Sequence record: MT833387.1
DNA: 39,390 bases
From: Escherichia phage HF4s
Strand: one strand, 5' to 3'
The number at the start of each line of letters is the position of its first letter. Position 1 is the first letter of the stretch. Position numbers and translations under genes: made by a program. The notes under the pieces are model-generated. The model made no database searches, was not told the DNA's origin, and was given only the letters and a program-made list of their open reading frames with translations. Positions 14-38,909 of the stretch are shown here, piece by piece.

Positions 14-436
14 ATGGCGACTGAACCAAAAGCTGGTCGCCCCTCTGATTATATGCCGGAGGTGGCTGACGATATCTGCTCGTTGCTTTCTTCTGGCGAA
101 AGTTTGCTGAAAGTATGTAAGCGTCCTGGTATGCCGGATAAGTCCACTGTTTTCCGCTGGTTGGCAAAGCATGAGGATTTTCGCGACAAGTACGCGAAGG
201 CAACTGAGGCACGAGCTGATTCTATTTTCGAAGAGATATTCGAAATTGCTGACAATGCGATTCCAGATGCTGCTGAGGTGGCAAAGGCAAGACTTCGCGT
301 TGATACCCGCAAATGGGCGCTGGCCCGAATGAATCCCCGTAAGTATGGCGACAAGGTAACTAACGAGCTTGTCGGTAAGGACGGCGGCGCAATCCAGATT
401 GAAACATCACCGATGAGCACTCTATTCGGAAAATGA
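14..436 (+). CDS. terminase small subunit (Sf6 gp1 / P22 gp3 type)
   Basis: 140-aa ORF opening the morphogenesis block, 4-nt overlap with the large terminase; size and position match Sf6-type TerS. Confidence 0.85.
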   Translation: MATEPKAGRPSDYMPEVADDICSLLSSGESLLKVCKRPGMPDKSTVFRWLAKHEDFRDKYAKATEARADSIFEEIFEIADNAIPDAAEVAKARLRVDTRKWALARMNPRKYGDKVTNELVGKDGGAIQIETSPMSTLFGK

Positions 437-1845
437 CCTCGATTAATCCTATCTTTGAACCGTTCATTAAGGCGCATCGCTACAAAGTCGCCAAAGGCGG
501 TCGAGGTAGCGGTAAATCATGGGCAATTGCGAGGCTGCTTGTTGAAGCGGCGCGTCGGCAGCCGGTGCGTATTCTCTGCGCTCGTGAACTGCAAAACAGT
601 ATCAGCGATTCGGTAATCCGGTTGCTTGAAGACACCATAGAGCGGGAAGGGTATTCGGCCGAGTTTGAAATTCAGCGTTCCATGATTCGTCATCTCGGAA
701 CTAATGCTGAGTTCATGTTCTACGGCATCAAAAACAACCCGACAAAGATTAAATCGCTCGAAGGTATTGATATCTGCTGGGTGGAGGAAGCGGAAGCGGT
801 AACGAAGGAATCGTGGGATATTCTGATACCAACCATCCGTAAGCCGTTCTCTGAAATATGGGTAAGCTTCAACCCGAAAAACATCCTCGACGATACCTAT
901 CAGCGATTCGTCGTAAACCCTCCTGATGATATTTGTCTGCTGACGGTGAACTACACCGACAACCCGCACTTTCCTGAAGTTCTCCGTCTGGAGATGGAAG
1001 AGTGTAAACGCAGAAATCCGACACTGTATCGTCACATCTGGCTTGGTGAGCCAGTAAGCGCAAGTGATATGGCAATCATCAAACGTGAATGGCTTGAAGC
1101 CGCAACCGATGCGCACAAGAAACTCGGATGGAAAGCGAAAGGCGCTGTTGTCTCTGCGCATGACCCATCAGATACAGGGCCAGATGCTAAAGGTTATGCA
1201 TCGCGTCACGGTTCGGTAGTTAAGCGCATTGCCGAAGGTCTGCTGATGGACATCAATGAAGGTGCTGACTGGGCTACTTCGCTGGCAATTGAAGACGGCG
1301 CTGACCATTACCTGTGGGATGGTGATGGCGTCGGTGCGGGCCTACGCCGACAGACAACGGAAGCGTTCTCCGGCAAGAAAATCACCGCCACGATGTTCAA
1401 GGGTAGCGAATCGCCATTCGATGAAGATGCATCGTACCAGGCCGGAGCATGGGCTGATGAAGTCGTACAGGGTGACAACGTTCGCACTATTGGCGATGTG
1501 TTCCGCAATAAGCGAGCGCAATTCTATTACGCGCTGGCTGACAGGCTGTATCTGACATATCGGTCGGTTGTCCACGGTGAGTATGCAGACCCCGACGACA
1601 TGCTGAGTTTCGACAAAGAAGCGATAGGCGAGAAGATGCTGGAGAAGCTGTTTGCAGAACTGACGCAGATTCAGCGCAAATTCAATAACAACGGGAAGCT
1701 GGAGCTAATGACTAAGGTCGAAATGAAGCAGAAGCTCGGTATTCCATCTCCTAACCTGGCTGATGCGCTGATGATGTGTATGCATTGCCCGGCATTGGTC
1801 CGCGAAGAAACAGAAATATACGTTCCCTCATCCTCCGGTTGGTAA
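433..1845 (+). CDS. terminase large subunit
   Basis: 470 aa; N-terminal Walker A (GGRGSGKS) ATPase followed by nuclease-like C-terminal half; position after TerS. Confidence 0.93.
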   Translation: MTSINPIFEPFIKAHRYKVAKGGRGSGKSWAIARLLVEAARRQPVRILCARELQNSISDSVIRLLEDTIEREGYSAEFEIQRSMIRHLGTNAEFMFYGIKNNPTKIKSLEGIDICWVEEAEAVTKESWDILIPTIRKPFSEIWVSFNPKNILDDTYQRFVVNPPDDICLLTVNYTDNPHFPEVLRLEMEECKRRNPTLYRHIWLGEPVSASDMAIIKREWLEAATDAHKKLGWKAKGAVVSAHDPSDTGPDAKGYASRHGSVVKRIAEGLLMDINEGADWATSLAIEDGADHYLWDGDGVGAGLRRQTTEAFSGKKITATMFKGSESPFDEDASYQAGAWADEVVQGDNVRTIGDVFRNKRAQFYYALADRLYLTYRSVVHGEYADPDDMLSFDKEAIGEKMLEKLFAELTQIQRKFNNNGKLELMTKVEMKQKLGIPSPNLADALMMCMHCPALVREETEIYVPSSSGW

Positions 1846-1847
1846 AC

Positions 1848-3973
1848 ATGGCAGAGACATTAGAGAAAAACATGAGCGGATCATGCTCAGGTTTGACCGC
1901 GCCTATTCTCCACAGAAGGAAGTGCGCGAAAAGTGCATTGAAGCTACGAGGTTTGCTCGTGTCCCCGGAGGTCAATGGGAAGGAGCAACGGCGGCTGGAA
2001 CTAAGCTTGATGAGCAGTTAGAGAAGTATCCTAAGTTTGAAATCAATAAGGTAGCAACTGAACTTAACCGCATCATTGCAGAATACCGCAATAACAGAAT
2101 CACTGTTAAGTTTCGTCCTGGTGACAGAGAGGCAAGCGAAGAGTTAGCCAATAAATTAAATGGTCTGTTCCGTGCTGACTACGAAGAAACTGATGGCGGT
2201 GAGGCTTGTGATAATGCATTTGACGACGCTGCTACTGGTGGTTTCGGTTGCTTCCGTTTGACGTCGATGCTGGTCAATGAATACGACCCCATGGACGATC
2301 GTCAGCGTATTGCTATTGAACCAATATACGACCCGTCGCGCTCTGTGTGGTTTGACCCTGACGCTAAGAAGTACGACAAATCTGACGCGTTGTGGGCGTT
2401 CTGCATGTATTCGTTGTCACCTGAAAAATATGAGGCTGAATACGGAAAGAAACCTCCTGCTTCTCTGGATGTAACGTCTATGACCAGTTGGGAATATGAC
2501 TGGTTTGATGAAGATGTTATTTACATAGCGAAGTATTACGAAGTTCGTAAAGAGTCTGTTGACGTCATCAGTTATCGACATCCAATCACTGGAGAGATTG
2601 CAACATACGACAGTGATCAGGTTGAAGATATTGAAGATGAACTGGCAATAGCTGGATTTCATGAAGTGGCAAGGCGCTCAGTGAAGCGCCGTCGTGTGTA
2701 TGTATCCGTAGTGGATGGTGATGGTTTCCTTGAGAAACCTCGACGTATTCCTGGTGAACATATCCCCCTCATCCCGGTTTATGGAAAACGCTGGTTCATT
2801 GATGACATTGAGCGTGTCGAAGGGCACATTGCAAAAGCAATGGATCCACAACGTTTGTACAACCTTCAGGTTTCAATGCTGGCTGATACTGCAGCGCAAG
2901 ACCCCGGTCAGATCCCTATAGTTGGCATGGAGCAAATTCGTGGACTTGAGAAGCACTGGGAGGCTCGCAACAAGAAACGCCCAGCGTTCTTGCCGTTGCG
3001 CGAAGTGAGAGATAAATCTGGCAACATTATCGCTGGAGCTACCCCTGCAGGATATACACAGCCTGCGGTTATGAATCAGGCATTGGCTGCATTACTACAG
3101 CAAACCAGTGCAGATATTCAGGAGGTTACAGGCGGCAGTCAGGCCATGCAGCAGATGCCAAGTAATATTGCTCAGGAAACGGTTAACAACTTGATGAACA
3201 GAGCAGATATGGCTTCGTTTATCTATCTGGACAATATGGCGAAAAGTCTTAAACGCGCTGGTGAAGTATGGCTGTCAATGGCGCGTGAAGTGTACGGTTC
3301 AGAACGTGAAGTGCGCATCGTTAACGAAGATGGAAGTGATGATATCGCTGTCCTGAGCGCACAGGTTGTTGACAGGCAAACAGGGGCTGTTGTTGCGTTA
3401 AATGACCTTTCTGTCGGTCGATACGATGTGACGGTTGATGTTGGACCAAGCTACACAGCACGACGTGATGCAACGGTTTCTGTACTGACAAATGTCCTTA
3501 GCTCTATGCTTCCAACAGACCCAATGCGCCCGGCAATTCAGGGTATTATTCTGGACAATATCGATGGCGAAGGCCTTGATGACTTCAAAGAGTACAACCG
3601 AAACCAACTGCTGATATCTGGTATTGCAAAACCACGCAATGAGAAAGAGAAGCAGATTGTTCAACAGGCGCAAATGGCAGCACAAAGCCAGCCAAATCCT
3701 GAAATGGTTCTCGCTCAGGCGCAAATGGTAGCAGCGCAGGCAGAAGCGCAAAAAGCAACTAACGAAACTGCTCAAACTCAAATCAAAGCATTTACTGCCC
3801 AGCAGGATGCGATGGAGAGTCAGGCAAACACTGTCTATAAACTGGCTCAAGCCAGAAACATCGATGACAAAGCAGTGATGGAGGCAATACGCCTTCTGAA
3901 AGATGTCGCCGAGTCACAACAACAGCAATTCCAGTCACCACCACAGTCACCGGCAGACTTAATGCCGAGTTAA
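1848..3973 (+). CDS. portal protein (P22 gp1 / Sf6 gp3 type), N-terminus disrupted by apparent frameshift
   Basis: Longest intact ORF is 1883..3973 (696 aa), with an N-terminal region aligning to P22 portal. An ATG at 1848 with MAETLEKN lies 3 nt after the terL stop in another frame; restoring one A in the A5 run 1866-1870 gives MAETLEKKHERIMLRFD, co-linear with the P22 portal N-terminus. Confidence 0.85.
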
Positions 3974-3986
3974 CCAGGAGTAATCA

Positions 3987-4870
3987 ATGGAAAACGAACT
4001 GATCATCGACGGTCAGGTTATTGACCTGTCTGAAACACAGGAAAATGCAGAAGAAACCATCATCCAAACAGAGTCACAGCCTGAGAATGAAAGCCAGGAT
4101 GACAACGGAAAAGAGATGGCAACTGATCCTGAAAAACCGAAGAGACACCAGAAGATTACGCCTTGCGTATTGGTGATGAAGAAATTCAGCTTAACGCTGA
4201 CGATGATGATCACATTGACGGGCAACCTGCACCGCAATGGGTGAAAGATCTTCGCAAAGGCTTCAAAGAAACACAGAAAGAAAACCGTGAGTTGCGCCGC
4301 CAGCTTGAGGAAGCATTAGCCAAGCCTGCGGAACATCAGCAACCACAACCAGACGCTATTCCACCAAAACCGACTCTTGAGTCGTGTGATTATGACGAAC
4401 AGGCGTTTGAACAGGCATTGACTGATTGGCATGAGAAAAAAGGCCGTGTCGAACAGCAGCAGCAACAAAAACTACGTCAGCAACAGGAATACCAACAGCG
4501 TTTCCAGCAAAGGGTAGAAGCGCATAAACAACGGGCAGCCAAACTTCCTGTGAAAGATTATCAGGAAATGGAGGCCATTGTTCTTAGTGAGCTACCACCA
4601 ATTCAGCAGGAAATCATCATTCACTGTGCAGACGAAGGCTCTGAACTACTCGCCTATGGCTTAGGTAAGAGCCAGCAATTACGCCAGCGTGTAGCCGCTG
4701 AGACAGATCCAATTCGCGCAGCATTCCTCTTGGGGCAGATTAGCAAACAGGTAAGCCTTGCTCCAAAACCAAAGAAAGCCATCAAGCCAGAGCCGGAAGT
4801 ACGTGGTGGCGGTGCTGATGCGAAACAAGACGAATTCAACAAATTATGCCCCGGCGCAAAAATCGAATAA
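3987..4870 (+). CDS. scaffolding protein (P22 gp8-like), split by apparent frameshift
   Basis: Two overlapping ORFs (3987..4244 and 4163..4870 with a TTG start) between portal and coat; acidic N-terminus and charged helical C-terminus typical of scaffold; frame change at the A5 run 4132-4136. Confidence 0.7.
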
Positions 4871-4881
4871 GGAAAAGATAA

Positions 4882-6153
4882 ATGCCTAACAATCTCGACA
4901 GTAACGTCAGTCAAATCGTTCTGAAAAAATTCCTTCCGGGTTTTATGTCAGATTTAGTTCTGGCGAAAACCGTAGACCGTCAGTTGCTGGCAGGTGAAAT
5001 CAACTCCAGCACTGGCGATAGCGTTAGCTTTAAACGTCCGCATCAATTCTCATCCCTCCGTACTCCCACTGGTGATATTTCAGGGCAAAATAAAAACAAC
5101 CTGATCTCAGGTAAAGCTACGGGGCGTGTAGGTAACTACATCACTGTTGCTGTTGAATATCAGCAACTGGAGGAAGCGATCAAGCTTAACCAACTGGAAG
5201 AAATTCTCGCGCCGGTTCGCCAGCGAATCGTTACCGACCTTGAAACAGAGCTTGCTCACTTCATGATGAATAACGGTGCGTTGTCACTTGGTAGCCCCAA
5301 TACTCCAATCACCAAATGGTCTGATGTTGCGCAGACGGCATCTTTCCTGAAAGACCTCGGCGTTAATGAAGGTGAAAACTATGCTGTAATGGATCCATGG
5401 TCTGCACAGCGACTTGCTGATGCGCAGACTGGTTTGCACGCTTCAGATCAATTGGTTCGTACTGCATGGGAGAATGCGCAGATTCCAACCAATTTTGGCG
5501 GCATTCGCGCACTGATGTCTAATGGGCTTGCCTCTCGTACGCAGGGGGCATTTGGCGGAACACTGACAGTCAAAACACAGCCAACTGTTACCTATAACGC
5601 AGTTAAAGACTCATACCAGTTCACTGTAACATTGACCGGAGCGACAGCCAGCATTACAGGTTTTCTGAGAGCTGGTGATCAGGTTAAATTCACCAATACC
5701 TACTGGCTGCAACAGCAGACCAAACAGGCGTTGTATAACGGAGCCACACCAATTAGCTTCACTGCAACGGTTACTGCTGATGCTAATTCAGACAGCAGTG
5801 GCGATGTGACGGTTACGCTTTCTGGTGTTCCGATTTATGACACGACAAACCCGCAGTACAACTCTGTAAGTCGTCAGGTAGCGGCAGGCGATGCCGTATC
5901 TGTAGTAGGCACTGCTAGCCAGACAATGAAGCCAAACCTGTTCTATAACAAGTTCTTCTGTGGACTTGGCTCTATCCCACTGCCGAAACTGCACAGTATT
6001 GATTCTGCTGTTGCAACATATGAAGGTTTCTCCATCCGCGTACATAAATACGCAGATGGCGATGCCAACGTGCAAAAAATGCGCTTTGACTTACTGCCTG
6101 CATATGTGTGCTTTAACCCTCACATGGGCGGTCAGTTCTTCGGTAATCCGTAA
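4882..6153 (+). CDS. major capsid (coat) protein, P22 gp5 / Sf6 gp5 type
   Basis: 423 aa, directly after scaffold with a strong RBS; length and position match the P22-like coat. Confidence 0.9.
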   Translation: MPNNLDSNVSQIVLKKFLPGFMSDLVLAKTVDRQLLAGEINSSTGDSVSFKRPHQFSSLRTPTGDISGQNKNNLISGKATGRVGNYITVAVEYQQLEEAIKLNQLEEILAPVRQRIVTDLETELAHFMMNNGALSLGSPNTPITKWSDVAQTASFLKDLGVNEGENYAVMDPWSAQRLADAQTGLHASDQLVRTAWENAQIPTNFGGIRALMSNGLASRTQGAFGGTLTVKTQPTVTYNAVKDSYQFTVTLTGATASITGFLRAGDQVKFTNTYWLQQQTKQALYNGATPISFTATVTADANSDSSGDVTVTLSGVPIYDTTNPQYNSVSRQVAAGDAVSVVGTASQTMKPNLFYNKFFCGLGSIPLPKLHSIDSAVATYEGFSIRVHKYADGDANVQKMRFDLLPAYVCFNPHMGGQFFGNP

Positions 6154-6159
6154 TAACAA

Positions 6160-6177
6160 GGGGCTTCCGCCCCTTTT
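6160..6177 (+). terminator. intrinsic terminator-like hairpin after the coat gene
   Basis: GGGGC-ttcc-GCCCC stem-loop followed by TTTT, 7 nt after the coat stop. Confidence 0.5.
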
Positions 6178-6195
6178 ATGTTTTAAGGAAACAAT

Positions 6196-6381
6196 ATGGA
6201 TCGCATGAGTGTATTCCTTGCCGCAGATAACGAATCCGGACATGTACAGGCCGTTATCGCAGAAAAAGACTTCCAGTTTTTCGAAAAGTTGGGCTTTGTT
6301 GCCTCAGTTGATGAATTGAAACCGACCAGTAAGCGAGGTCGTAAGGCGGCAGACAATGGCAACAGTACTGACAAAGGGTGA
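6196..6381 (+). CDS. small hypothetical protein (Sf6 gene 6 position)
   Basis: 61-aa ORF between coat and the gp4-like gene, with RBS; overlaps the next gene by 26 nt. Confidence 0.5.
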   Translation: MDRMSVFLAADNESGHVQAVIAEKDFQFFEKLGFVASVDELKPTSKRGRKAADNGNSTDKG

Positions 6382-11514: not shown

Positions 11515-13511
11515 TGGCTAAAGCATGGAAAGATGTTATCGCCTCTCCACAGTATCAGGCGTTAGCACCAGAACAAAAAGCGCAGGCTCAGGAGCAATAC
11601 TTCAATGAAGTCGTTGCTCCGCAAGCCGGAGAAAATGCAGAGCAGGCTAAGCAAGCTTTCTATGCTGCCTATCCATTGCCATCTGTGCAGCCAGTGGAGA
11701 CACAGCAACCAGTAGCACAGCAACAACCACAGCAAAGTGGATTCATGTCTGATCTTGGCGAAGCAGTAAAAGAGACTGGTCGCGGAATGGTGCAGGCTGG
11801 CGTGAACGTGGCAAACATACCTGCATCAGTTGCCGATGCTGTAATAAGCGCGGCGGCTTGGGCTGGCGGTAAACTCGGCATTGGCGATGGTACATATCAC
11901 CCAGCGCCACGAGTAACAACGCAGGGATTAGAGCAGGACTTTGGCCTTCAGCAAGGCGCGCTGACTCCACAAACGACAGAGGGCAGGGTGTTTGCTGAAG
12001 CATTGCCTTACCTCACTCCTGCTGGCGTTGAGAGAGCGGCAGCACAGGCACCAACACTTGCTGGTCGAATTGCTCAGGGGGCAACTCGCCTTCTAGCAGA
12101 AAACGCAGTTGGATCACTTGCTGCAAATAGTGCGAAAGATGATGCGGAAGCACTCGCCACCGATTTAGGCGTTGGTGTGCTGGCTGGCGGTGCTATTAAC
12201 GCTGCCGGACGTGGATTAGGTGCTGCTTATCGTGGCGTTCGTGGTGCTATTGCGCCAGAAGCGCAGCAGGCTATCAGATTTGCAGAGCGTGAAGGAGTTC
12301 CTCTGCACACCACAGACCTGTTACAGCCTACTTCCCGGGTCGGAAAAATGGCGCAGACTACAGCAGAAAATATCCCTCTGGCTGGCACAAGCGGAATGAG
12401 AGCAACGCAACAGGAAGCGAGAAGCCAGTTGGTGCAGAGATTTGCTGATAAATTCGGCGAGTACGATCCGGCAGTTGTTATTGACAGCCTTAAAGCGAAA
12501 ACATCAGGAATTCGTCGTGCTGCAGGGAGCCGTCTTGAGCAGGTTCAGAATGCAATGGCGGGAGTCAATATACAGCCTGCGCGAGCAATTCAGCAGATTG
12601 ATACTGAGATATCTAATCTGCAGAAGCTTGGTAAGGTAGCTGATAACGAGACAATTTCAAAACTTCAGTCATATCGTGATGAGCTTGTTCGTAATGCTGG
12701 CCCTGATGGTCCGGTAAATCTGGATTTGAAGCAATTAAGCGACCTGCGCAGCCAGTTCAGAATGGACGTGAAGGGTGAGCGACCAGTGTTACCAAACCGT
12801 TCCGATGCCGCCATTCAGCGCGTTTACAAGGCAATGACTGACGATATCAATGGTGCCATTGGTCAGAATCTTGGCAACGATACTCTCCGTAAATATCAGC
12901 AGGCCAATGCCGTCTACGCTGACGAAGCGGCGAAACTAAAGAATACCAGGCTGAAGAATGTTCTCATGAAAGGCGACCTGACGCCTGAGGTCGTAAACAA
13001 CATGCTTTTCAGTAAGAACAAGTCTGAGGTGCAGAACCTCTACAACTCTGTCGGCCAAGTAGGTCGGTCTCAGATGCGTAACGGCATTATCGGCAAGGCG
13101 ATGGAAAAATCAGGTGGCTCACCTGACCAGTTCCTGCGACAGGTTAACCTGATGTCTAACCAGACTGGAATCGCGTTTAAAGGTCGTGATGCTGCTTATC
13201 TGAAAGGGCTGAAGAACTACCTGGAGTCAACGAAGCGAGCAGGACAAGCAGGAGTAACAACGCCAACCGGCCAGCAGGCTATCCCGTTCATTATGGGAAT
13301 TGGCACTGTAACTAACCCAGCATTATTAGGGGTTGGAGGTGGATATGGCTTACTTGCAAGAATGTATGAGAGCGAACCAGCACGTAATGCGATGCTTCGC
13401 CTGGCAAATACCCCTAGAGGGTCTACCGTCTTCGAGAAAGCGTTATCTGACGTCGAGCGCATTGTTAATTCATTCGCTCAGGGCGCGAAGTCTGAGGCAT
13501 TAAGTGAATAG
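11514..13511 (+). CDS. ejection protein, P22 gp16-like
   Basis: 665 aa in the gp16 position; Gly/Ala-rich segments. Confidence 0.75.
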   Translation: MAKAWKDVIASPQYQALAPEQKAQAQEQYFNEVVAPQAGENAEQAKQAFYAAYPLPSVQPVETQQPVAQQQPQQSGFMSDLGEAVKETGRGMVQAGVNVANIPASVADAVISAAAWAGGKLGIGDGTYHPAPRVTTQGLEQDFGLQQGALTPQTTEGRVFAEALPYLTPAGVERAAAQAPTLAGRIAQGATRLLAENAVGSLAANSAKDDAEALATDLGVGVLAGGAINAAGRGLGAAYRGVRGAIAPEAQQAIRFAEREGVPLHTTDLLQPTSRVGKMAQTTAENIPLAGTSGMRATQQEARSQLVQRFADKFGEYDPAVVIDSLKAKTSGIRRAAGSRLEQVQNAMAGVNIQPARAIQQIDTEISNLQKLGKVADNETISKLQSYRDELVRNAGPDGPVNLDLKQLSDLRSQFRMDVKGERPVLPNRSDAAIQRVYKAMTDDINGAIGQNLGNDTLRKYQQANAVYADEAAKLKNTRLKNVLMKGDLTPEVVNNMLFSKNKSEVQNLYNSVGQVGRSQMRNGIIGKAMEKSGGSPDQFLRQVNLMSNQTGIAFKGRDAAYLKGLKNYLESTKRAGQAGVTTPTGQQAIPFIMGIGTVTNPALLGVGGGYGLLARMYESEPARNAMLRLANTPRGSTVFEKALSDVERIVNSFAQGAKSEALSE

Positions 13512-13666: not shown

Positions 13667-16042
13667 ATGTCAGATATCACAACAAATGCTGTTGTCGTAA
13701 ACCCACGCCCTATTTTCACCGACTCAAGAACGTTCCGAGCAGTTGCTAATGGTAAAATCTACGTAGGGAAAATAGACACCGACCCAACCATTCCATCAAA
13801 CCAGATCCCGGTCTACCTTGAAAATGAGAATGGTGACAAGGTTCAAATCCCTCAACCACTCATCGTAAATAACGCTGGCAAGATTGTTTACAACGGACAG
13901 TTAGCAAAGGTCGTAACGGTAAACGGTTATAGCATTGCCGTATATGACGCCTACGGTTCTCAAGTTGACTATATCCCAAACGTCCTTGGGTACGATCCAG
14001 ATAGCTTCAAAGACCAATTAGCTGGCCCAGACGGAGCATCGTTAATTGGTTATGGCAATGGAACGGTTGCAGATAAGCTTGATGAGCTTAAGACGCCATT
14101 TGACTTCGGCGCTAAAGGGGATGGAGTAACTGACGACACGCTGGCATTACAAGCATACATTGATGGTGTAGATGGCGACATTGACTTATACGGAAAAACT
14201 TATCTAGTTAGCAAAAACCCAGCACTTGCAACTACCTATCCAACGGAACCTGATTTAGCCAACAATGGATACAACTTCTGCCCGTGTCTCGCTATAGTTA
14301 ATAAAACCAATAAGAGAATCTTTAACGGCACACTCGTCAGCAAGGTATTTGGTCAGTCTGTTCTGTCTATCATCAACAGCACAGGAATAGAAGTTAACCT
14401 TAAAATTGTTGGGTTTGGTAAGTTTCCTGCCATTGACCACCCTAGTGGATATGCGGAAAAAGGATATTCAACTGGGGGCTACAATACGATTGATGGAGGC
14501 CTTCTTCTTGGCCCAAACAATTCAATCCCCACCTCCAGCTATACGCTAGGAAAGTACAATGGGGTATCAGGTCAGTTCCCAATATACGATGCCTCATGTA
14601 ACCCTACAGGTGGATATCAGTCTACTTGGGGTGCATTTGGAGGGGGTTACATTGGTAGCTATGCATGTGCTGTAACTATTCAGCGGGCATGCAAAAATAT
14701 AACACTACGCGGCTGTGAGATATACGGATTCAATGAAGCTGCTGTCGGCATTGGCATAAGATTTATTGTCAGCTCCACTGGATACACCGACTATACAACC
14801 GATGCTGATGTTCCTCGTGGGGTTAACGTCCTGGATTGCTATCTGCATGACTGCTACACAGCAGGAGTGCACGTATGCTCAGGGTACAATATTGTTTATG
14901 ACTCGTTAAGAGTGGAGAACATTGGTCATCCCAATGCAGATGACGCAACAGACACAGACATTAACCCAGGATACGGAGTAACAACATCAAGATTTAGAAA
15001 CATCCGAAACATAACTTGCGTGAATAGTTTCTTCCTAAATTGCAAACGCAAATCTATCGATTTCCATGCAGGCGGGCAATTGATAGTTGATGGAAACTAT
15101 TGCATGAGAACAGGTGTCAATGGCATATATTTTGAGGCGGGATTTGGTTGGGATAATGGATACGAGCCATATAACGTCATTGTTACTAACAATTACATTG
15201 TTACAAGAGCACTAGGCGTGGTTGGCACTGGTGGGATTTCCATGGTAGGAAATGGCTCCGCCCTAGCAGAGTCATACCCGTATCCTTTTTTGAAGTGTAA
15301 CAACAACTATATTGAGGTAAGGGCTGCCAACGGGGTGGGTATTAATAATGGTTACAACAATAACGATTACCACTATGAGGACATAAACATATGTGATAAT
15401 ACGGTTGTATACAAATCTGACACCTACACCCCGGGTCAGTTTGTTGCTATTCGTTGCAACCTAAATACTCCTTCATCTACTACTCTTCCGAAGCAAAACA
15501 TCAAGCTCTGTCGTAACAGCATAAAAATCCTGACAACGCTTGGTAATTACGCATTCGGAACTCCAATAACCATCGGTGGAACTCCTGCTGTTCTTATTGC
15601 AACCGATAATACAGTGGATATGGGGAACGTAGCTAATGGATCAAGTGCATGGTATGCGACAATTACCCCCAACCCAATAACTGACTATTACTTCTCAGGT
15701 AATAAAATACTTAACTACATTAAACCAGCCACTTTAAGACAAGCGGAAGTTATGTTCTATGACAACATAGGATTTACTGCCACAGGAACTTATGTTTCGA
15801 TAGCTATGCAGTGGTTTAGAGGGATATGGACGGTTGATGCAGCTGGTCTCGATTCACTTGCTGGCGCTAAGTCAGTTACCCTTGCATCTGACGGGGTCGG
15901 GATCACTCAGGGAACCCCGATACAACATGGGTCAATATCAGCTGCAATGACAATAAGTTCATCTAATATTGGGTTTACTACCACCGCCGGAACGACATGC
16001 TACGTTGGCGTAAAAATGAAACCTGTTGGTATTAAAGCATAA
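13667..16042 (+). CDS. tailspike protein: P22-type head-binding domain fused to a pectate-lyase-like beta-helix depolymerase domain
   Basis: 791 aa; first ~115 aa closely match the P22 gp9 head-binding domain (NPRPIFT...[16 protein letters not shown]...YDPD); remainder is unrelated to the P22 endorhamnosidase and carries the [13 protein letters not shown] motif of pectate-lyase-fold depolymerases. Confidence 0.9.
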
Positions 16043-16046
16043 ATAT

Positions 16047-16070
16047 GGCGGGGATACCCCCGCCTATTTT
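16047..16070. terminator. bidirectional intrinsic terminator between convergent tailspike and gtrC
   Basis: GGCGGGG-ata-CCCCGCC hairpin flanked by A/T runs on both sides. Confidence 0.6.
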
Positions 16071-17301
16071 ATTTCTGGTATATGTAATCGATACCGTAAT
16101 ATTCTCCAGCAGCTTTAGGGTTATGGAACTTATCAAGGCGATCCCCTAACCTGAAAGTGTTCTTCTCATTATATTTTGGCACTGTAATCACCTTTTCTCC
16201 AGAATGAATGCCTTTCTCTATCATTGCCACTCTGTCCAAGTATTGATTGTTTATATCTATGTAATATGATGACAACATGAAATAATCAACAAGAAATACA
16301 GGCAATAAAGTTAAAAGTAATACTGGCGTATAAAATTTTGAGATTTTCCCCTCAAATGAAGAAATTATCAGCGACAGACTTGCGAGAAGCAAAATAAAAC
16401 CAGTGGTCATAGCCCTTTGCGGATAGTAAGGTGCTGCAAACATAATTACATTCGAGCCGATTGCAAGGGCAAAGAATATAAAGGAGTATTGCATTTTTGT
16501 TTTATCATGCAGCATTGACAATGACGACAAAATAAACATTGATGTCATGATTACGATTATTAGTGCCCCATACTGCACAAGCATTTCAGGCATCCGGTCA
16601 AGCATGTGAAAGTAGATTCTTTCAGTTAAATCTTTTGAATACCATGAACTGAATGAAGGGCCGGAAGCCCTTGCTGCATTCCCAGGTGCCAAAAGCATGG
16701 AGGCAGAACCAACAAGTACAAATGGCAATAGAGCCAAATCTTTTACAGCGAAACGCTTGTTTATGAATGCCAATATACTATGACAAACGATAAATCCCAC
16801 AGAAAGCACCGCCACTGACTCATTCGATGCGCCAGCTAAAAATCCTAACGCAGCTTGTGGTATGGTAAATTTTACACCTTTCATTAAATTATTGCACAAG
16901 AGCATTAGAAGTAATGAAGGTATTAGATAATTAACAAACCCTACAACCCAAAAGGTATTTTGGCCTATGGAAGGGTTAAAAATAAAGAATGAAACCGCTA
17001 TTAAGCAGAATATAGCAGCCCCACCCTGAGCCATTCTCCTAATAACATGCATCAGAAGTATGCTAACTGTCGCGGTAACAGTTGCACTCATCGCATTAGA
17101 TTTAGCAAAAAGGATCATCGGACTAATAAAGTCTACTATGTATCTGCCGCTCCACCCCATATACATTGCAATATGCTTGTCAATGCTAAATCCAAGATTG
17201 CAGAATGCATAATCATCAGATTGCATTGGTGAAAGATAGCTTATTGCCCAAACCATCCCAAAGAAGGCAATATATGCGATAGGGTCTAAATACTTTTTCA
17301 T
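16069..17301 (-). CDS. gtrC: serotype-specific O-antigen glucosyltransferase, GtrC-type polytopic membrane protein
   Basis: 410-aa multi-pass membrane protein immediately downstream of gtrA-gtrB in the same orientation; visibly AT-rich relative to neighbours. Confidence 0.7.
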
Positions 17302-18214
17302 TTTCTTCCCTTCAGCACGTAACGAGGCCTATTCTTAACTTCTACGTAAATCCTGCCAATGTACTCACCGAGCACACCAATTCCTATTAGCTGAATACCG
17401 CCAAGAAAAAGAATAGAAACAAGGAGGGATGGATACCCACGAACCGCATTACCAAAGGCCAGGGTGTCTATAATCATCCACGCGCCGTACATAAACGCAG
17501 CACCGGCAACGAACAGGCCAATATAAGTCCACATGCGCAGTGGGAATGTTGAGAAGCTTGTGATCCCCTCAAGCGCCAGGTTCCATAGCTTCCAGCCGTT
17601 GAATTTGGTGCTTCCAGCCACTCGTTCTGCTCTGGCATACTCCACAACATCGGTACGGCCGCCAACCCAACTCAATACGCCTTTCATGAACAGGTTGCGC
17701 TCAGGCATGAGCTTAATGTTTTCTACCACCTCGCGAGACATTAGCCTGAAATCTCCAACATTTTCCTCGATCTGCGGGTTGCTGATTTTGTTATGCAGCT
17801 TATAGAACCACTCGGCGGTTTTCCTCTTCAGTCTGCCATCAGTTGAGCGGTCAGATCGTTTAGCAAGCACCATGTCAGCACCTGCTAGCCACTTTTCAAT
17901 CAGATGAGGAATGACCTCAATCGGGTCTTGCAGGTCAACATCAATAGGAATAACGGCATCACCTGTTGCATGGTCTAACCCTGCAAACAATGCTGGTTCT
18001 TTACCAAAGTTTCGTGTAAATGACAGCGGAACAACTAGAGGATCTGAAACGGACAGAGCGTTAATGATTGACTCCGTAGCGTCTTTGCTACCATCATTTA
18101 TAAAAACAATTTCCACTTCATATGGCTTCAACTCTTCGAATTCACGTACCGTTTTATAAAAATAGGTATCGCTTCCTCTTCGTTGAAGACAGGAACGACC
18201 AGAGATATCTTCAT
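17298..18214 (-). pseudogene. gtrB: bactoprenol glucosyltransferase GtrB, frameshifted after codon ~19
   Basis: ATG overlapping the gtrA stop encodes the canonical [19 protein letters not shown] and then terminates; the rest of GtrB ([10 protein letters not shown]...) continues in another frame; break at the T5 run (plus-strand A5, 18158-18162). Confidence 0.85.
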
Positions 18215-18573
18215 TTCGCATCCCTAAAGACAATGAACTTTGAATAGACGAAACCGCACACTAGGCTGATGGCGGAGAAGGTGACAAGAGTGACAATTGG
18301 AGGAAGTGCACATTTATCGGCAGCCCATCCAACAGTAGCACTCAGTGTTCCCATGAATCCTACATATAACATGTAGCGCATCGTTGTAGTCGAAGCTTTG
18401 AATGTGAATTTTGCATTCGCGAAGAAGCTAAAGCTCACAGCCACAACGAAACCTGCGAAGTTTGCAAGAGCCTGATTGGTGTGCGCGGCATAGATACATA
18501 CACCAAAAACCACCCAATGTATAAGTGTGTTCAGCACACCAATCGAGGTGTACTTTGCAAATAGCTTTAACAT
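18211..18573 (-). CDS. gtrA: GtrA flippase-like small membrane protein
   Basis: 120-aa hydrophobic protein with stop overlapping the gtrB start (ATGA); typical gtrA size and arrangement. Confidence 0.85.
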
Positions 18574-19900: not shown

Positions 19901-20025
19901 TTTTTACCCGTCATGGAGTGCGGCTGTCAACGATCTGACGCGAACCATTACGAACTGTTAATCTACGGAAGGCTTGATATTCAGGGGATTTTGCGGACTG
20001 GTACGGATGGGAGCGAACTGATAAA

Positions 20026-20040
20026 TGGTGTCCCCTGCAG
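20026..20040. other. candidate attP core (reverse complement of the 3' end of an argW-type tRNA-Arg gene)
   Basis: TGGTGTCCCCTGCAG matches the complement of the tRNA acceptor 3' end, in the 213-bp gap between xis and int, as expected for P4-type integrases. Confidence 0.5.
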
Positions 20041-23954: not shown

Positions 23955-24248
23955 TCAGTCATTACTGATAGCGCCATAGCGTGAGCGGTAATTACGCAGG
24001 CGCGGGTCAATTTCAGGGAAGTGGGTATATGTGGCTTTGCGGAATGGTCGGATTGATGTCTGGTAAATTCGCTCGCGTTCTTCTTTCTCTGCAAGCCATA
24101 TACAATGGCGAAATTCCTTTTCCTCTTTCGTTTCCTGCGGTAGCGACATTATCCGATCGTAGTTTTTTCTGAATTTATCCAGCACCTCCGATACGGAATT
24201 GCCGGAACAGCGGCGCGCGTCATCCGCACCATACAGAGGCGCTGGCAT
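23955..24248 (-). CDS. hypothetical protein (Abc-position, possible anti-RecBCD)
   Basis: 97-aa ORF downstream of the erf-ssb pair; function inferred from position only. Confidence 0.4.
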
Positions 24249-24271: not shown

Positions 24272-24654
24272 TTAGAAGGGAATTGAATCGTCGTATTCAG
24301 GATGATTTTGATGATTGCTACTTTGTTGCTGTTGGCTGTTTCCTGAAGTTGCAAATCCAATCTTTGCATTCAGTAATTCAAGAGTGATTGATTGACCATT
24401 TTGCCCCTGATAAACATCAACCCTGATGTTTTCTCCGGTAATTTCCACAATGCCACCTTCAACAAGAACACTACGGTAGTAATCCGCTTGCGCTCCTGGC
24501 TTGGCAAATACAACGGCGCTGTAGTTTGTCCATTCTTTCTTTTTGTCTGGCGATCGTAATACTGAACGCCAGCACGGATGTTGAATCCGATATTTTCCCC
24601 GGCCTGAAACTCTCTTGCGGGCTTGTTTAGTCTTACAGTAATCGAATGTGCCAT
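24272..24654 (-). pseudogene. ssb: single-stranded DNA-binding protein, frameshifted
   Basis: N-terminal ~40 codons in one frame; the other frame continues as an OB-fold-like sequence ending in the SSB acidic tail (EYDDSIPF-stop); break at the A5 run (plus-strand T5, 24540-24544). Confidence 0.75.
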
Positions 24655-25808: not shown

Positions 25809-26777
25809 TTAGTAGGTTATTTTTGTTGCGAATACTTCGCCTTTTACGATGGCTGTTATGATATTTTTAGCAACATCTTCTGATGCGCCAACCTTGATAA
25901 GGTCAGCAAGTATTTTGTTATTTACTTCTTTCCGGTGAGCTTTATCCTTTGCTCTACGCTCTTCTTCGTCCTTGATTCTTTTTTCTTCTGCTATTCTGGC
26001 TTGCTCTTTTGCTTCAGCCTCGCGACGGATTCGTTCAGCCTCCTCCTGTGCTTTTCTGCGCTCTGCTTCAATTGCTGCCTGCTTTTCTCTTTCAGCTCGT
26101 TCTGCTGCCTCTTTTGCTTCGCGCTGTGCTCGTTGCTCGGCTTCAATGCGTTCACGCTCTGCACGTTCCGCTGCGGCCTTAGCTTCTGCTTCTCGCCTTG
26201 CTGCTGCTTCAATTTCGGCTTTTGCCTTTGCTTCGGCTTCTGCTCTGGCTTTCTCTTCAGCTTCTCTTTTTAATCGTTCTTCATGCTCTCGCTTTTCCTG
26301 CTCCGCTTTGAGTCTTGCCTCTTCTCTTTGGCGGTCAAATTCGCGATCCATCAAAATAGCTATTTCATGGTCAGACTCAATTTGCTTTGCGAGAGCTTCA
26401 GCTGCTGCCTTAGCTTCTTCTTCGGCTTTAATCCGCGCCTGTTCTTCCTCATAATCAGTAAGAGGCTGGCGCGCCTTGGCTTTCAGCTCATCAAGGCGAT
26501 CACGCACTGTCTTGCGGTTGGCATCAATTAGCTTTGGAATTTCCTTCAGTTCAGCAACAAGGTCTTTGCCAAGACCATCGAGATATGTTTTCGTCTGCGC
26601 AACTTTATACGCCAGAGAAGCGATCTCCTTTCTGCCCTTTGCCGTTGTGATATCAGGCACAAAGGACATAACTTCACGTTCAACCTTTTGAAGGATTTCT
26701 TCAATCTGGTCGGCAGACTGAAATACAGTCATTGCATTTGCTTTTTCAATAACAACTAAATCTGTTACTTCACTCAT
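25809..26777 (-). CDS. hypothetical protein with long charged coiled-coil (E/A/K/R repeat) region
   Basis: Start assigned to ATG 26777 (GGAGG RBS) downstream of the terminator; ~150 aa of EAKA/ERAER low-complexity repeats. Confidence 0.7.
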   Translation of the reverse strand: MSEVTDLVVIEKANAMTVFQSADQIEEILQKVEREVMSFVPDITTAKGRKEIASLAYKVAQTKTYLDGLGKDLVAELKEIPKLIDANRKTVRDRLDELKAKARQPLTDYEEEQARIKAEEEAKAAAEALAKQIESDHEIAILMDREFDRQREEARLKAEQEKREHEERLKREAEEKARAEAEAKAKAEIEAAARREAEAKAAAERAERERIEAEQRAQREAKEAAERAEREKQAAIEAERRKAQEEAERIRREAEAKEQARIAEEKRIKDEEERRAKDKAHRKEVNNKILADLIKVGASEDVAKNIITAIVKGEVFATKITY

Positions 26778-27925: not shown

Positions 27926-28010
27926 AATACTGTAGGTATTTTATTGTGTAAATACCCAAGGTATTTATTTTTGGTGAAATAATGATAAGCAAATGAATAC
28001 AAAGGATATT
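27926..28010. promoter_or_regulatory. OL operator region / PL promoter
   Basis: Three 15-bp sites of the form AATAC-N5-GTATT (AATACTGTAGGTATT, AATACCCAAGGTATT, AATACAAAGGATATT), same consensus as the OR sites. Confidence 0.65.
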
Positions 28011-28096
28011 TATTTTTTCGGTGTCTGCTTGTTCAGTGCTTTTTATGCGGGATATGTGAAGTGGATCCCGATAGCTATTGCTGCCGGGATTATGGG

Positions 28097-28464
28097 TTAG
28101 TCAGCGAAGGTTAAGACGAGAATTACCTTAATGATGTCTGCTACAACAGACACGGCCATAGATAAACCAAAGACAATCCAAGCCATAGAGATGTCTTCAC
28201 TACCATCGTATAGGGTTCCGTAATCACTGGTGTAAGGCGTAAATGTCGCGCCTTGATACAATAGGTATAAGCTTGATCCATAGAGGATAAATGCAGATAT
28301 CCCTTGTATTGCTATGATCACTAGAATCATGAAACGAGCTGATCTATGCGCCCAAGCCTGGCTTATTTTTCTGATAGAGATTTCGCAATAAAAGCATGCG
28401 CTAAGCCGTAAATTGTCGAGATTGCCAACATCCCAAAAAAGCTTGCTATAGCGGTTCCAACCAT
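28097..28464 (-). CDS. small multi-pass membrane protein in the rexAB position, split by apparent frameshift
   Basis: 33-aa hydrophobic ORF (AAGGGG RBS, 17 nt after the cI stop) and 77-aa two-TM ORF (28097..28330) are separated by an A5 run; adding one A fuses them into one ~122-aa protein with 3-4 predicted TM helices. Confidence 0.6.
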
Positions 28465-28481
28465 AATCGCCCCTTGCGTGA

Positions 28482-29198
28482 TCAAACCAGCCTCAGTTTT
28501 GTCTCAATTGCAACGCCTATAATCTTGCAGTTTCCATTGATTGGCACGAGAGGCCATGCAGGATTAAGTCCCTTGAGGTATTTATTTCCGCCGTCGATTA
28601 TCAGCTTCTTGAATGTTGCTTCGTTAGAGTCAGAAAGTTTTGCTATGACCAAGCTGCCGTTGATCGCCTCCCTTCCGGTATCGAAAAGAACGAATGTTCC
28701 CTCTGGAATGCTTAACCCAACCGGTGCCGTCATTGAATCACCTTCCACTTTAAGCCAGAACGCATTACCTTGAATATGCGCGTCAGACTCAAGCCAAACA
28801 TCTATGTCTTTAATGGTGTATGGTTCGCATGCTTCACACCACGAGCCAGCCTGGATACTGCTTAACACCGGATACCTCTTTCCTGCTCTGTATTCCCCTG
28901 CATACCTTACGTTGGCATCGCTCTTAAGGCTTTCTGCCTGTTCTGCAACCTTGGCAGCAATTGACTGGCTAAAATCAGCAATTGAGACTTGCAACAGTCG
29001 TGCAAAACCAGATGCAACCTCAACGTTTAGCGCGTTTCTGCCATTAAGATAATGCCCTACCGCTCCTTGGGTGATACCCAGTTCATCAGCGATTGAGTAT
29101 TGGGTTATTCCCAATTCTTTCTTTTTTGACTCATACAAAGCCTTAAGCCGCTTAGCGTCTTCCAGCTGTTCTGTCGTCAGTGATTTTTTATTTTCCAT
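28482..29198 (-). CDS. cI: CI-type repressor (HTH plus LexA-like S24 autoprotease domain)
   Basis: 238 aa; aligns along its length with lambda CI, including the Ala-Gly cleavage region and Ser/Lys dyad context. Confidence 0.92.
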   Translation of the reverse strand: MENKKSLTTEQLEDAKRLKALYESKKKELGITQYSIADELGITQGAVGHYLNGRNALNVEVASGFARLLQVSIADFSQSIAAKVAEQAESLKSDANVRYAGEYRAGKRYPVLSSIQAGSWCEACEPYTIKDIDVWLESDAHIQGNAFWLKVEGDSMTAPVGLSIPEGTFVLFDTGREAINGSLVIAKLSDSNEATFKKLIIDGGNKYLKGLNPAWPLVPINGNCKIIGVAIETKLRLV

Positions 29199-31149: not shown

Positions 31150-32564
31150 GACAGGATATCGAAGCGAGCGTTATCGGTGGCCTGCTGATTGGTGGATTAA
31201 CTCCAACCGCCAGCGACGTTCTGGCAACGCTGGAGCCGGAAGCGTTTTCAATTCCGCTCTACCGGAAAGCCTTCGAGGTTATCCGCAAGCAGGCGAGAAA
31301 CAGAAACCTAATCGACGCGCTGATGGTTGCCGAGGCGTGCGGAGAGGAGCATTTCACGTCAATCCTGATGACCAGTAAGAACTGCCCGAGTGCCGCAAAC
31401 CTGAAGGGATATGCCGGAATGGTCGCGGATAACTATCACCGCCGTCTGGTGCTGGAAATCATGGATGAAATGCGTGAACCAATTCAGAGCGGAACCATCG
31501 ACGCATCGAGTCAGGCGATGGACGAGCTCGTAAAGCGTCTTTCAGCCATCAGAAAGCCCCGTGACGAGGTTAAACCTGTACGGTTAGGGGAAATCATCAC
31601 TGACTACACTGACACGCTTGACAGGCGTCTGAGGAACGGAGAGGAATCAGATACCCTGAAGACCGGAATCGAAGAACTTGACGCTATCACCGGAGGGATG
31701 AACGCAGAAGACCTGGTGATTATCGCCGCTCGTCCTGGTATGGGGAAAACCGAACTGGCTCTGAAGGTTGCCGAAGGCGTGGCAAGCCGCGTTATTCCTG
31801 GTTCTGACGTCCGGCGCGGGGTATTGATTTTCTCAATGGAAATGAGCGCATTGCAGATTGCAGAGCGAAGCATTGCCAACGCCGGGAGGATGTCGGTTAG
31901 CGTACTGCGAAATCCTGCATCGATGGATGACGAAGGCTGGGCGCGTGTTGCTAACGGCATGAGTCAGCTTGCGGATTTGGATGTATGGGTAGTCGATGCA
32001 TCGCGGTTATCGGTCGAAGAAATACGCTCAATCGCAGAACGGCACAAACAGGAAAATCCAAACCTGTCACTCATCATGGCGGATTATCTTGGCCTGATTG
32101 AGAAGCCGAAAGCAGACCGCAACGACCTCGCAATTGCTCACATCTCCGGAAGCCTGAAGGCGATGGCGAAAGACCTGAAAACGCCTGTTATCTCCCTGAG
32201 TCAGCTTTCGCGCGATGTTGAGAAGCGACCAAACAAACGCCCGACAAACGCAGATTTGCGTGATTCAGGAAGCATTGAACAGGACGCAGACTCAATCATC
32301 ATGCTCTATCGGGAAGCGGTATATGACGAGAACAGTAGCGCCGCGCCATTTGCTGAAATCATCGTGACGAAAAACCGTTTTGGCTCACTTGGTACGGTTT
32401 ACCAGCGGTTCTGTAACGGACACTTTGTTGCATGTGACCAGGATGAAGCCAGACAGATTGCACAGCATCAAATGCGCCTGCTGCGCGTGGCAGACGATAT
32501 GCACAAGGGGCGGACGTATGACCATCATACATCAGACGGGACGTATGACCATCTACATCACTGA
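31146..32564 (+). CDS. replicative DNA helicase, DnaB family (P22 gp12-like)
   Basis: 472 aa; Walker [10 protein letters not shown] and DnaB C-terminal motifs. Confidence 0.9.
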
Positions 32565-32574
32565 GCTAATAACA

Positions 32575-32601
32575 GGGGCTATTTACACAGTAGCCCTTTT
32601 T
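32575..32601 (+). terminator. intrinsic terminator (tR2-like)
   Basis: GGGCTA-9 nt loop-TAGCCC followed by TTTTT, directly after the helicase stop. Confidence 0.65.
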
Positions 32602-32628
32602 ATTGGATTAAGAACGAGGGGGATCCTG

Positions 32629-32841
32629 ATGGACACCGTTAACGGAATGTGTTCAGACGCACCGCGTGCCAAAAAATGTAAGTGCGGAAAATCACCGACA
32701 ATATTCGACATGGAGAACGGGTGCCAAATCTACTGCGCTAACCACGCTGTTGTGGCGGCCGCGAATTATCGCAGTGCGGTAACGGAGTGGAATAACCTGA
32801 AATCTGTTAGAGAGGGAAGTCATGAAAAAACTAACCTTTGA
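32629..32841 (+). CDS. small Cys-rich protein (NinA position)
   Basis: 70-aa ORF with CKCG...C..YC motif; overlaps the ninB start. Confidence 0.45.
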   Translation: MDTVNGMCSDAPRAKKCKCGKSPTIFDMENGCQIYCANHAVVAAANYRSAVTEWNNLKSVREGSHEKTNL

Positions 32842-38157: not shown

Positions 38158-38331
38158 TAGCGATAATTTTACTCATCATCCTTCACATCTGGCTCTGTAG
38201 ACAGGGTGATGATCACTTCTGGAGTGAATCCAGATTAAACATCTCATTGCTGATGCTTGATATTGAGCATCTTGCGCGCGGTAAGGGGCTGCGTTGAGAT
38301 AAGAGCCAGTCATTACAAATACCAGGATTTA

Positions 38332-38663: not shown

Positions 38664-38909
38664 CCATTACAAAGCCTATCTACTGGTGGGCTTGATAATG
38701 AAACCAGAATTTATTCTTGGCAACCAGTTACGGCAGTACAGCGAAACAACCCAAGCCAGTAAGTGGGGAAATAACACTGGCAGCCACTGAAAGATGAACC
38801 TCCTGCCTTATGGCAAAAAGATTCTTTGTGGTGGCGGACTGATGGAAAGACATCTGTTATTGCAGAGACCATTCAATGAGTGGTCTCGACAATGGCTTAT
38901 ACCCTGCAC

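Follow-up and report, generated by a model that had tools for sequence, protein, structure and literature searches.

In phage P22, procapsids form by co-assembly of the coat protein with the scaffolding protein, which exits at DNA packaging. The scaffolding protein, gp8, is needed for procapsid building in P22-like phages, and forms with N-terminal deletions still assemble procapsids in vitro. In phage Sf6 the corresponding protein is the product of gene 4 (NP_958180.1), located between the portal and the coat gene. The scaffolding gene of Escherichia phage HF4s (sequence record MT833387.1) shares with Sf6 gene 4 this position, the length after repair and an AGGAG-ATG start, but differs from it and from the E. 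coli prophage protein WP_000426729.1 at codons 49-51, where the HF4s record has a run of five A residues (A5) instead of six (A6), which breaks the reading frame. The more distant P22 gp8 (303 amino acids; PDB 8i1v, chain H) is homologous and stands in the same gene order, and its role in procapsid assembly is presumably shared, although the acidic N-terminal 85 residues of the HF4s protein have no match in P22 gp8 and the function of the Sf6-type protein is itself deduced from that of P22.

The window analysed here is the whole stretch of 39,390 bases. It comprises the entire genome of a podovirus that resembles P22 and belongs to the Sf6/HK620 group (Lederbergvirus). Its genes are arranged as follows.

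14..436, small terminase gene
433..1845, large terminase gene
1848..3973, portal gene (ATG at 1848)
3987..4870, plus strand, scaffolding gene of the Sf6 gp4 / P22 gp8 type between portal and coat, broken by a contraction of one nucleotide
4882..6153, coat gene
between coat and tailspike, head-completion and ejection genes
13667..16042, tailspike gene, 791 amino acids
after the tailspike, minus strand, gtr cluster for O-antigen glucosylation and integrase gene
16069..17301, minus strand, type-specific gtr gene
17298..18233, minus strand, gtrB
18211..18573, minus strand, gtrA
after the integrase, early, replication, nin, Q and lysis genes

In its lysogenic-conversion module HF4s departs from Sf6, as the gtr cluster takes the place that oac holds in Sf6 beside the integrase gene. 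The public gene-position index contained no exact copy of the tailspike gene. The highest identity that any phage record or E. coli genome reached over long stretches was 96-97%, short of near-identity. According to the list of open reading frames, all structural genes are of full length apart from the portal and the scaffolding genes.

The scaffolding gene as recorded comprises the following features.

3976..3980, plus strand, Shine-Dalgarno sequence AGGAG, 7-11 nucleotides upstream of the ATG at 3987 and the sole ribosome-binding site of the gene
3987..4244, plus strand, ORF1, 85 amino acids from an ATG start
4132..4136, plus strand, A5 run (tgAAAAAcc) at codons 49-51, the point of the frame change; A6 in all reliable relatives
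4163..4870, plus strand, ORF2, 235 amino acids from a TTG start, native scaffolding residues 60-294

The two ORFs, which an earlier note on this DNA had described from the sequence, including the TTG start of the second, overlap by 82 nucleotides, and ORF2 is read in the -1 frame of ORF1. The first 50 residues of ORF1 are the native N-terminus, and the remaining 35 are out of frame (PKRHQKITPCVLVMKKFSLTLTMMITLTGNLHRNG). The frame of ORF2 is closed by a TGA at 4130-4132 directly before the A5 run and the frame of ORF1 by its stop at 4242-4244, so that the change of frame that yields one protein must fall within 4133-4241. Within this interval, only a change at the A run restores the sequence of the relatives, PEK followed by TEETPEDY; the intact reading frame gives the junction peptide ATDPEKTEETPEDYALR, where the frameshifted ORF1 instead reads ...PEKPKRHQK... 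The placement of the frame change at 4132-4136 in the earlier note was likewise confirmed by a multiple alignment with five phages (Sf6, HK620, N7, 611R6 and Gally), in which a single gap at the A run was the sole difference in length. With one A added, the gene measures 885 nucleotides and encodes 294 amino acids, the size that had been predicted for it, and the predicted acidic N-terminus is evident from 28 D/E versus 3 K/R among the first 85 residues. A single uninterrupted ORF of about 294-303 amino acids, as expected for this family, is obtained from the HF4s record only after this addition.

The repaired protein is identical to Sf6 gp4 at 292 of 294 positions in an ungapped alignment, and its C-terminal 244 residues, which would carry the coat-binding helix-turn-helix domain expected of this family, are 100% identical. 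Each half also matches WP_000426729.1, the scaffolding protein of an E. coli prophage, with 100% identity, and the halves align with residues 1-51 and 51-295 of one relative's reading frame. Since both halves match a single 294-residue protein of the relatives at 100%, their juxtaposition is not a matter of chance. The Pfam family PF09306, with a curated cut-off of 25 bits, was matched by the repaired protein with 37.6 bits and by ORF2 alone with 40.5 bits, and the P22 scaffolding protein (chain 8i1v_H, 303 amino acids) was matched over residues 90-284 with an E value of 2.8e-9. These alignments with the Sf6 and P22 proteins, which the earlier note had proposed as a check, point to one gene. 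Sf6, HK620 and prophages of E. coli share the order of portal (ending at 3973), scaffold (3987-4870) and coat (4882-6153). By sequence and synteny, the gene is a member of the Sf6 gp4 / P22 gp8 scaffolding family. ORF1 as written lacks the whole Pfam-matched region and would amount to a null allele of a protein on which P22-like phages depend.

A comparison of positions 3900-4950 with phage records by megablast retrieved eight records at 99.2-99.5% identity, representing Sf6 and HK620 (two records each), N7, Gally, 611R6 and 683R2. In all eight, the 1051 bases of HF4s aligned to 1052 bases of the record, the A run had a length of six, and a single coding sequence of 885 nucleotides was annotated between portal and coat in the aligned records. 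The scaffolding gene was present in 237 finished E. coli genomes, and in the best 60 of these 237 its length was always 885 nucleotides. In 15 E. coli genomes the gene differed from that of HF4s by the one gap alone, with no substitution. A query of 101 nucleotides across the run found A5 in none of 232 finished E. coli genomes, the best match reaching 99.0% over 102 bases of the record. A6 was likewise found in 99 of 99 IMG/VR contigs with a pattern scan that accepted either length. Altogether, 108 of the 114 related sequences compared had A6; the six with A5 were contigs that had been fetched for carrying the frameshift product. In these sequences, A6 is universal wherever the data are reliable, and A5 occurs only in error-prone assemblies plus a few read or metagenome assemblies. 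The missing A is very probably an error in homopolymer length that arose during sequencing or assembly, and the real phage most likely has A6.

A different outcome for the phage would follow if A5 were real and tolerated, either by a -1 slip of tRNA-Lys or of the RNA polymerase that restores the protein or by a truncated scaffold, re-initiated at the GTGA where the two ORFs meet, that suffices for assembly. We consider this highly improbable. In its favour, the exact wild-type sequence PEK-TEET would result if the tRNA decoding AAA slipped from 4134-4136 to 4133-4135, the stop of ORF1 overlaps a GTG in the frame of ORF2, ORF2 retains the whole Pfam-matched region, and the N-terminal deletions of P22 gp8 mentioned above are compatible with a shortened protein. 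Set against these points are the lack of a canonical heptamer, of a significant downstream structure and of a Shine-Dalgarno sequence or early ATG for ORF2, the absence of the two-frame arrangement from every relative and the frameshifts in other genes of the record, which tolerance at this site leaves unexplained. Moreover, a run of only five A residues is too short for efficient transcriptional slippage.

The individual observations on recoding are as follows. No heptamer of the type X XXY YYZ lies in the frame of ORF1 at the run, where the 0-frame codons are CCU GAA AAA CCG and re-pairing of the P-site tRNA-Glu with UGA would be required. The predicted fold of positions 4125-4230 gave a z score of -1.34, and 21 of 200 shuffled sequences folded at least as well, which provides no indication of a stimulatory RNA downstream. 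All reliable relatives encode a single ORF, and in none of them was an arrangement in two frames found. Overlapping ORFs in the 0 and -1 frames and an A-rich junction are shared with the programmed sites of dnaX (A AAA AAG), of the tail chaperone genes G/GT and of IS911 orfAB; in contrast to these, HF4s has no in-frame heptamer, no stimulatory structure and no conserved arrangement, and programmed -1 frameshifting was rejected on these grounds. The production of two separate polypeptides as the designed state was rejected as well, given that ORF2 starts without a Shine-Dalgarno sequence and has no early ATG: no such sequence precedes the TTG at 4163 or the GTG at 4241, and the first in-frame ATG of ORF2 is located at about its residue 145. 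The earlier note, which left the cause of the split open, had named two polypeptides and a programmed mechanism as the readings that would speak against one broken gene; the evidence points to neither of them but to a homopolymer-length error. With the same frameshift, public gene callers begin the second ORF at the GTG at 4241, which overlaps the TGA of ORF1 as GTGA (4241-4244) and yields 'proteins' of 85 and 209 amino acids in the databases. This GTGA overlap mimics translational coupling by accident.

The homopolymer error favoured here would be expected to leave traces elsewhere in the record. Blastn comparisons of the whole genome with full relatives, followed by filtering against all compared loci, revealed about eight further one-base contractions private to HF4s, seven of them in A or T runs of six or seven, which makes about nine with the scaffolding gene.

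1866..1870, plus strand, A5 for A6 at codons 7-8 of the portal gene, placing the conserved N-terminus MAETLEKKHERI out of frame
18158..18162, minus strand, A5 for A6 about 20 codons from the start of gtrB (bactoprenol glucosyltransferase), which is frameshifted
24540..24544, minus strand, T5 for T6 (plus-strand letters) in a small gene adjoining erf, causing a frameshift
28013..28018, T6 for T7 near or in a gene for 122 amino acids beside the repressor gene
28366..28370, minus strand, T5 for T6 in the same gene for 122 amino acids
32458..32460 (around 32459), plus strand, TT for TTT (GATT-GCA versus GATTTGCA) at the C-terminus of the replicative helicase, longer in 3 of 3 relatives
32597..32601, T5 for T6 downstream of the helicase site
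38815..38819, plus strand, A5 for A6, probably intergenic, with A6 in 46 of 46 relatives

Private expansions or insertions were found nowhere in the HF4s record. In the portal gene the longest ORF starts at the ATG at 1883 and encodes 696 amino acids versus 708. The portal run was A6 in 69 of 73 relatives and A5 in three error-prone assemblies and one IMG/VR contig; among 225 finished E. coli genomes, a single one had A5 (NZ_CP040397.1). For gtrB, the closest match among 542 E. coli genomes was NZ_CP110978.1, in which the extra A was the sole difference within a query of 141 nucleotides. The T5 near erf is shared by at least one finished E. coli genome, that of strain 81, where a copy of the same length is annotated as 'frameshifted'. 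Positions 32400-32660 gave fragmented matches when compared with E. coli genomes.

In an alignment of five genomes over positions 1800-6200, HF4s had two private indels and each of the other four none, while private substitutions numbered 9 in HF4s versus 2-12 in the others. Compared with its closest relatives, HF4s has far more indels per substitution than is usual for coding sequence, with 1 indel to 0 substitutions in the scaffolding gene and 2 to 3 over 1031 nucleotides around 28000-28900. A test on the homopolymer spectrum did not discriminate, as the ratio of runs of at least six to runs of five was 0.30 in HF4s and 0.29 in Sf6. Runs of six still occur 28 times in the record, and a run of seven once; any undercalling was therefore partial.

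Several other candidate sites were discarded. The differences at 26442 and 26797 are not private to HF4s, which agrees there with Sf6 and 683R2, CUS-3 being the odd one out. Those at 38311 and 38730 are natural polymorphisms, those at 13295 and 20613 represent alignment edges or divergent sequence, and three gaps at 24009-24012 sum to an in-frame difference of three nucleotides. The CUS-3 record (CP000711) has one extra base each opposite HF4s positions 26442 and 26797, and it annotates the overlapping genes ECRS218_0048 and ECRS218_0049 where Sf6 has the single gene 33 for 322 amino acids. The CUS-3 record may itself be frameshifted at that gene.

The exact frameshift product of 85 amino acids was present in seven public contigs, three of which belong to E. 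coli O104:H4. The longest contig carrying it is AFST01000001.2, from a draft genome of E. coli O104:H4 C227-11 (PMC7781526). The run SRR254209 comes from Ion Torrent sequencing of LB226692, a strain of the O104:H4 outbreak (PMC4393072, PMC4393859). In the finished O104:H4 genome FDAARGOS_349 the run is A6 and the gene intact. Compared with this genome, AFST01000001.2 showed no mismatch over 20,258 nucleotides and two gaps, the scaffold A6->A5 and a G8->G7. The latter, at position 16468 of the C227-11 draft, lies in a phage DNA-ejection gene and shortens the called gene from 488 to 379 amino acids. The assemblies of SRR254209 and SRR389194 likewise had no mismatches to FDAARGOS_349, with seven and four one-base homopolymer deletions, respectively, and both carry the scaffold A6->A5 as well as the portal A6->A5 seen in HF4s. 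The comparisons of the three O104:H4 assemblies with the finished genome extended over 3.6-20 kb, with no substitution. The absence of substitutions, together with the exclusive presence of homopolymer deletions relative to a finished genome, demonstrates that the scaffold contraction is an artefact for this strain. Two other read assemblies had the scaffold A5 plus several further homopolymer deletions, and in one short metagenome contig the scaffold A5 was the only such deletion.

The contraction in HF4s is identical to the under-calls in SRR254209 and AFST01000001.2, which exemplify the homopolymer under-calling of flow-based or early long-read assemblies, being an A6->A5 in the same gene and one among several one-base homopolymer deletions. 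Whereas the O104:H4 cases can be held against a finished genome, the error in HF4s is deduced by analogy with them and from the pattern of contractions in its own record. A contraction located in an A run, relatives that are longer by one base, sister contractions in the same direction and the artefact in O104:H4 data together bear the marks of a homopolymer error. The reads behind the HF4s record were most probably miscalled. The record would then be one base short in some A or T runs of six or seven, with the split of the scaffolding gene as one instance of this under-calling. The real phage most likely makes one protein of 294 amino acids from the ATG at 3987.

Slippage mutations also arise naturally at homopolymer runs, which are hot spots for frameshifts, and A5 could be real in the sense that a recent -1 slippage inactivated the scaffolding gene. 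The phage or prophage would then be defective and unable to build procapsids on its own, and its host may have been prone to slippage. We regard this as unlikely, though less so than a tolerated A5. The occurrence of the scaffold A5 in a few other assemblies is in line with such a mutation, as are the contractions at sister sites in finished E. coli genomes (the portal A5 and the T5 near erf in strain 81) and the joint damage to several genes, as expected once selection is lost. The scaffold A5 itself, however, was absent from all finished E. coli genomes and IMG/VR contigs compared, and the portal and scaffold sites are proven artefacts in the O104:H4 data. All nine private length changes are contractions, and a mutational origin would need several independent events of the same sign, two of which would happen to fall on the sites of proven artefacts. 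A mismatch-repair mutator is not supported either, since transitions account for only four of the nine private substitutions within 1800-6200, unlike the spectrum of such a mutator.

Inactivation in a decaying prophage would also be expected to show in the remainder of the genome. The structural genes contain no nonsense mutation, IS element or large deletion, and one-base contractions are their sole lesions. The attP core of Sf6/HK620, ATGGTGTCCCCTGCAG, is intact at 20025-20040 within an unbroken alignment of int, attP and xis, and the end of HF4s joined to its start aligns across the circular junction of Sf6. The intact attP core and the Sf6-like junction of end and start indicate that the sequence is in phage (circular) order rather than in prophage order. 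Neither an integrated context nor other marks of decay, by which a pseudogene of a decaying prophage would be recognised, were found. Although the contractions strike several genes, the essential portal and scaffolding genes among them, the sequence is that of a whole genome in circular order.

The split is most probably not a real feature, and the underlying gene is most probably an ordinary scaffolding gene of the well-known Sf6/P22 type. If A5 were nevertheless genuine and the phage viable, HF4s would provide a natural example of recoding that keeps a head-assembly gene functional. As the gene is of a well-known type, the biological importance of the homopolymer error is small, and its practical value lies in the quality of annotation. 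The record should carry a single scaffolding coding sequence of 294 amino acids, repaired or flagged as 'frameshifted; sequencing error?', instead of two ORFs, and the same correction is needed for the portal start, gtrB, the C-terminus of the helicase and a few small genes. Two A6 runs of Sf6-like phages, one in the portal gene and one in the scaffolding gene, are repeatedly under-called in data from Ion Torrent and in draft long-read data, and knowing them helps to avoid false pseudogene calls in the prophages of E. coli and Shigella.
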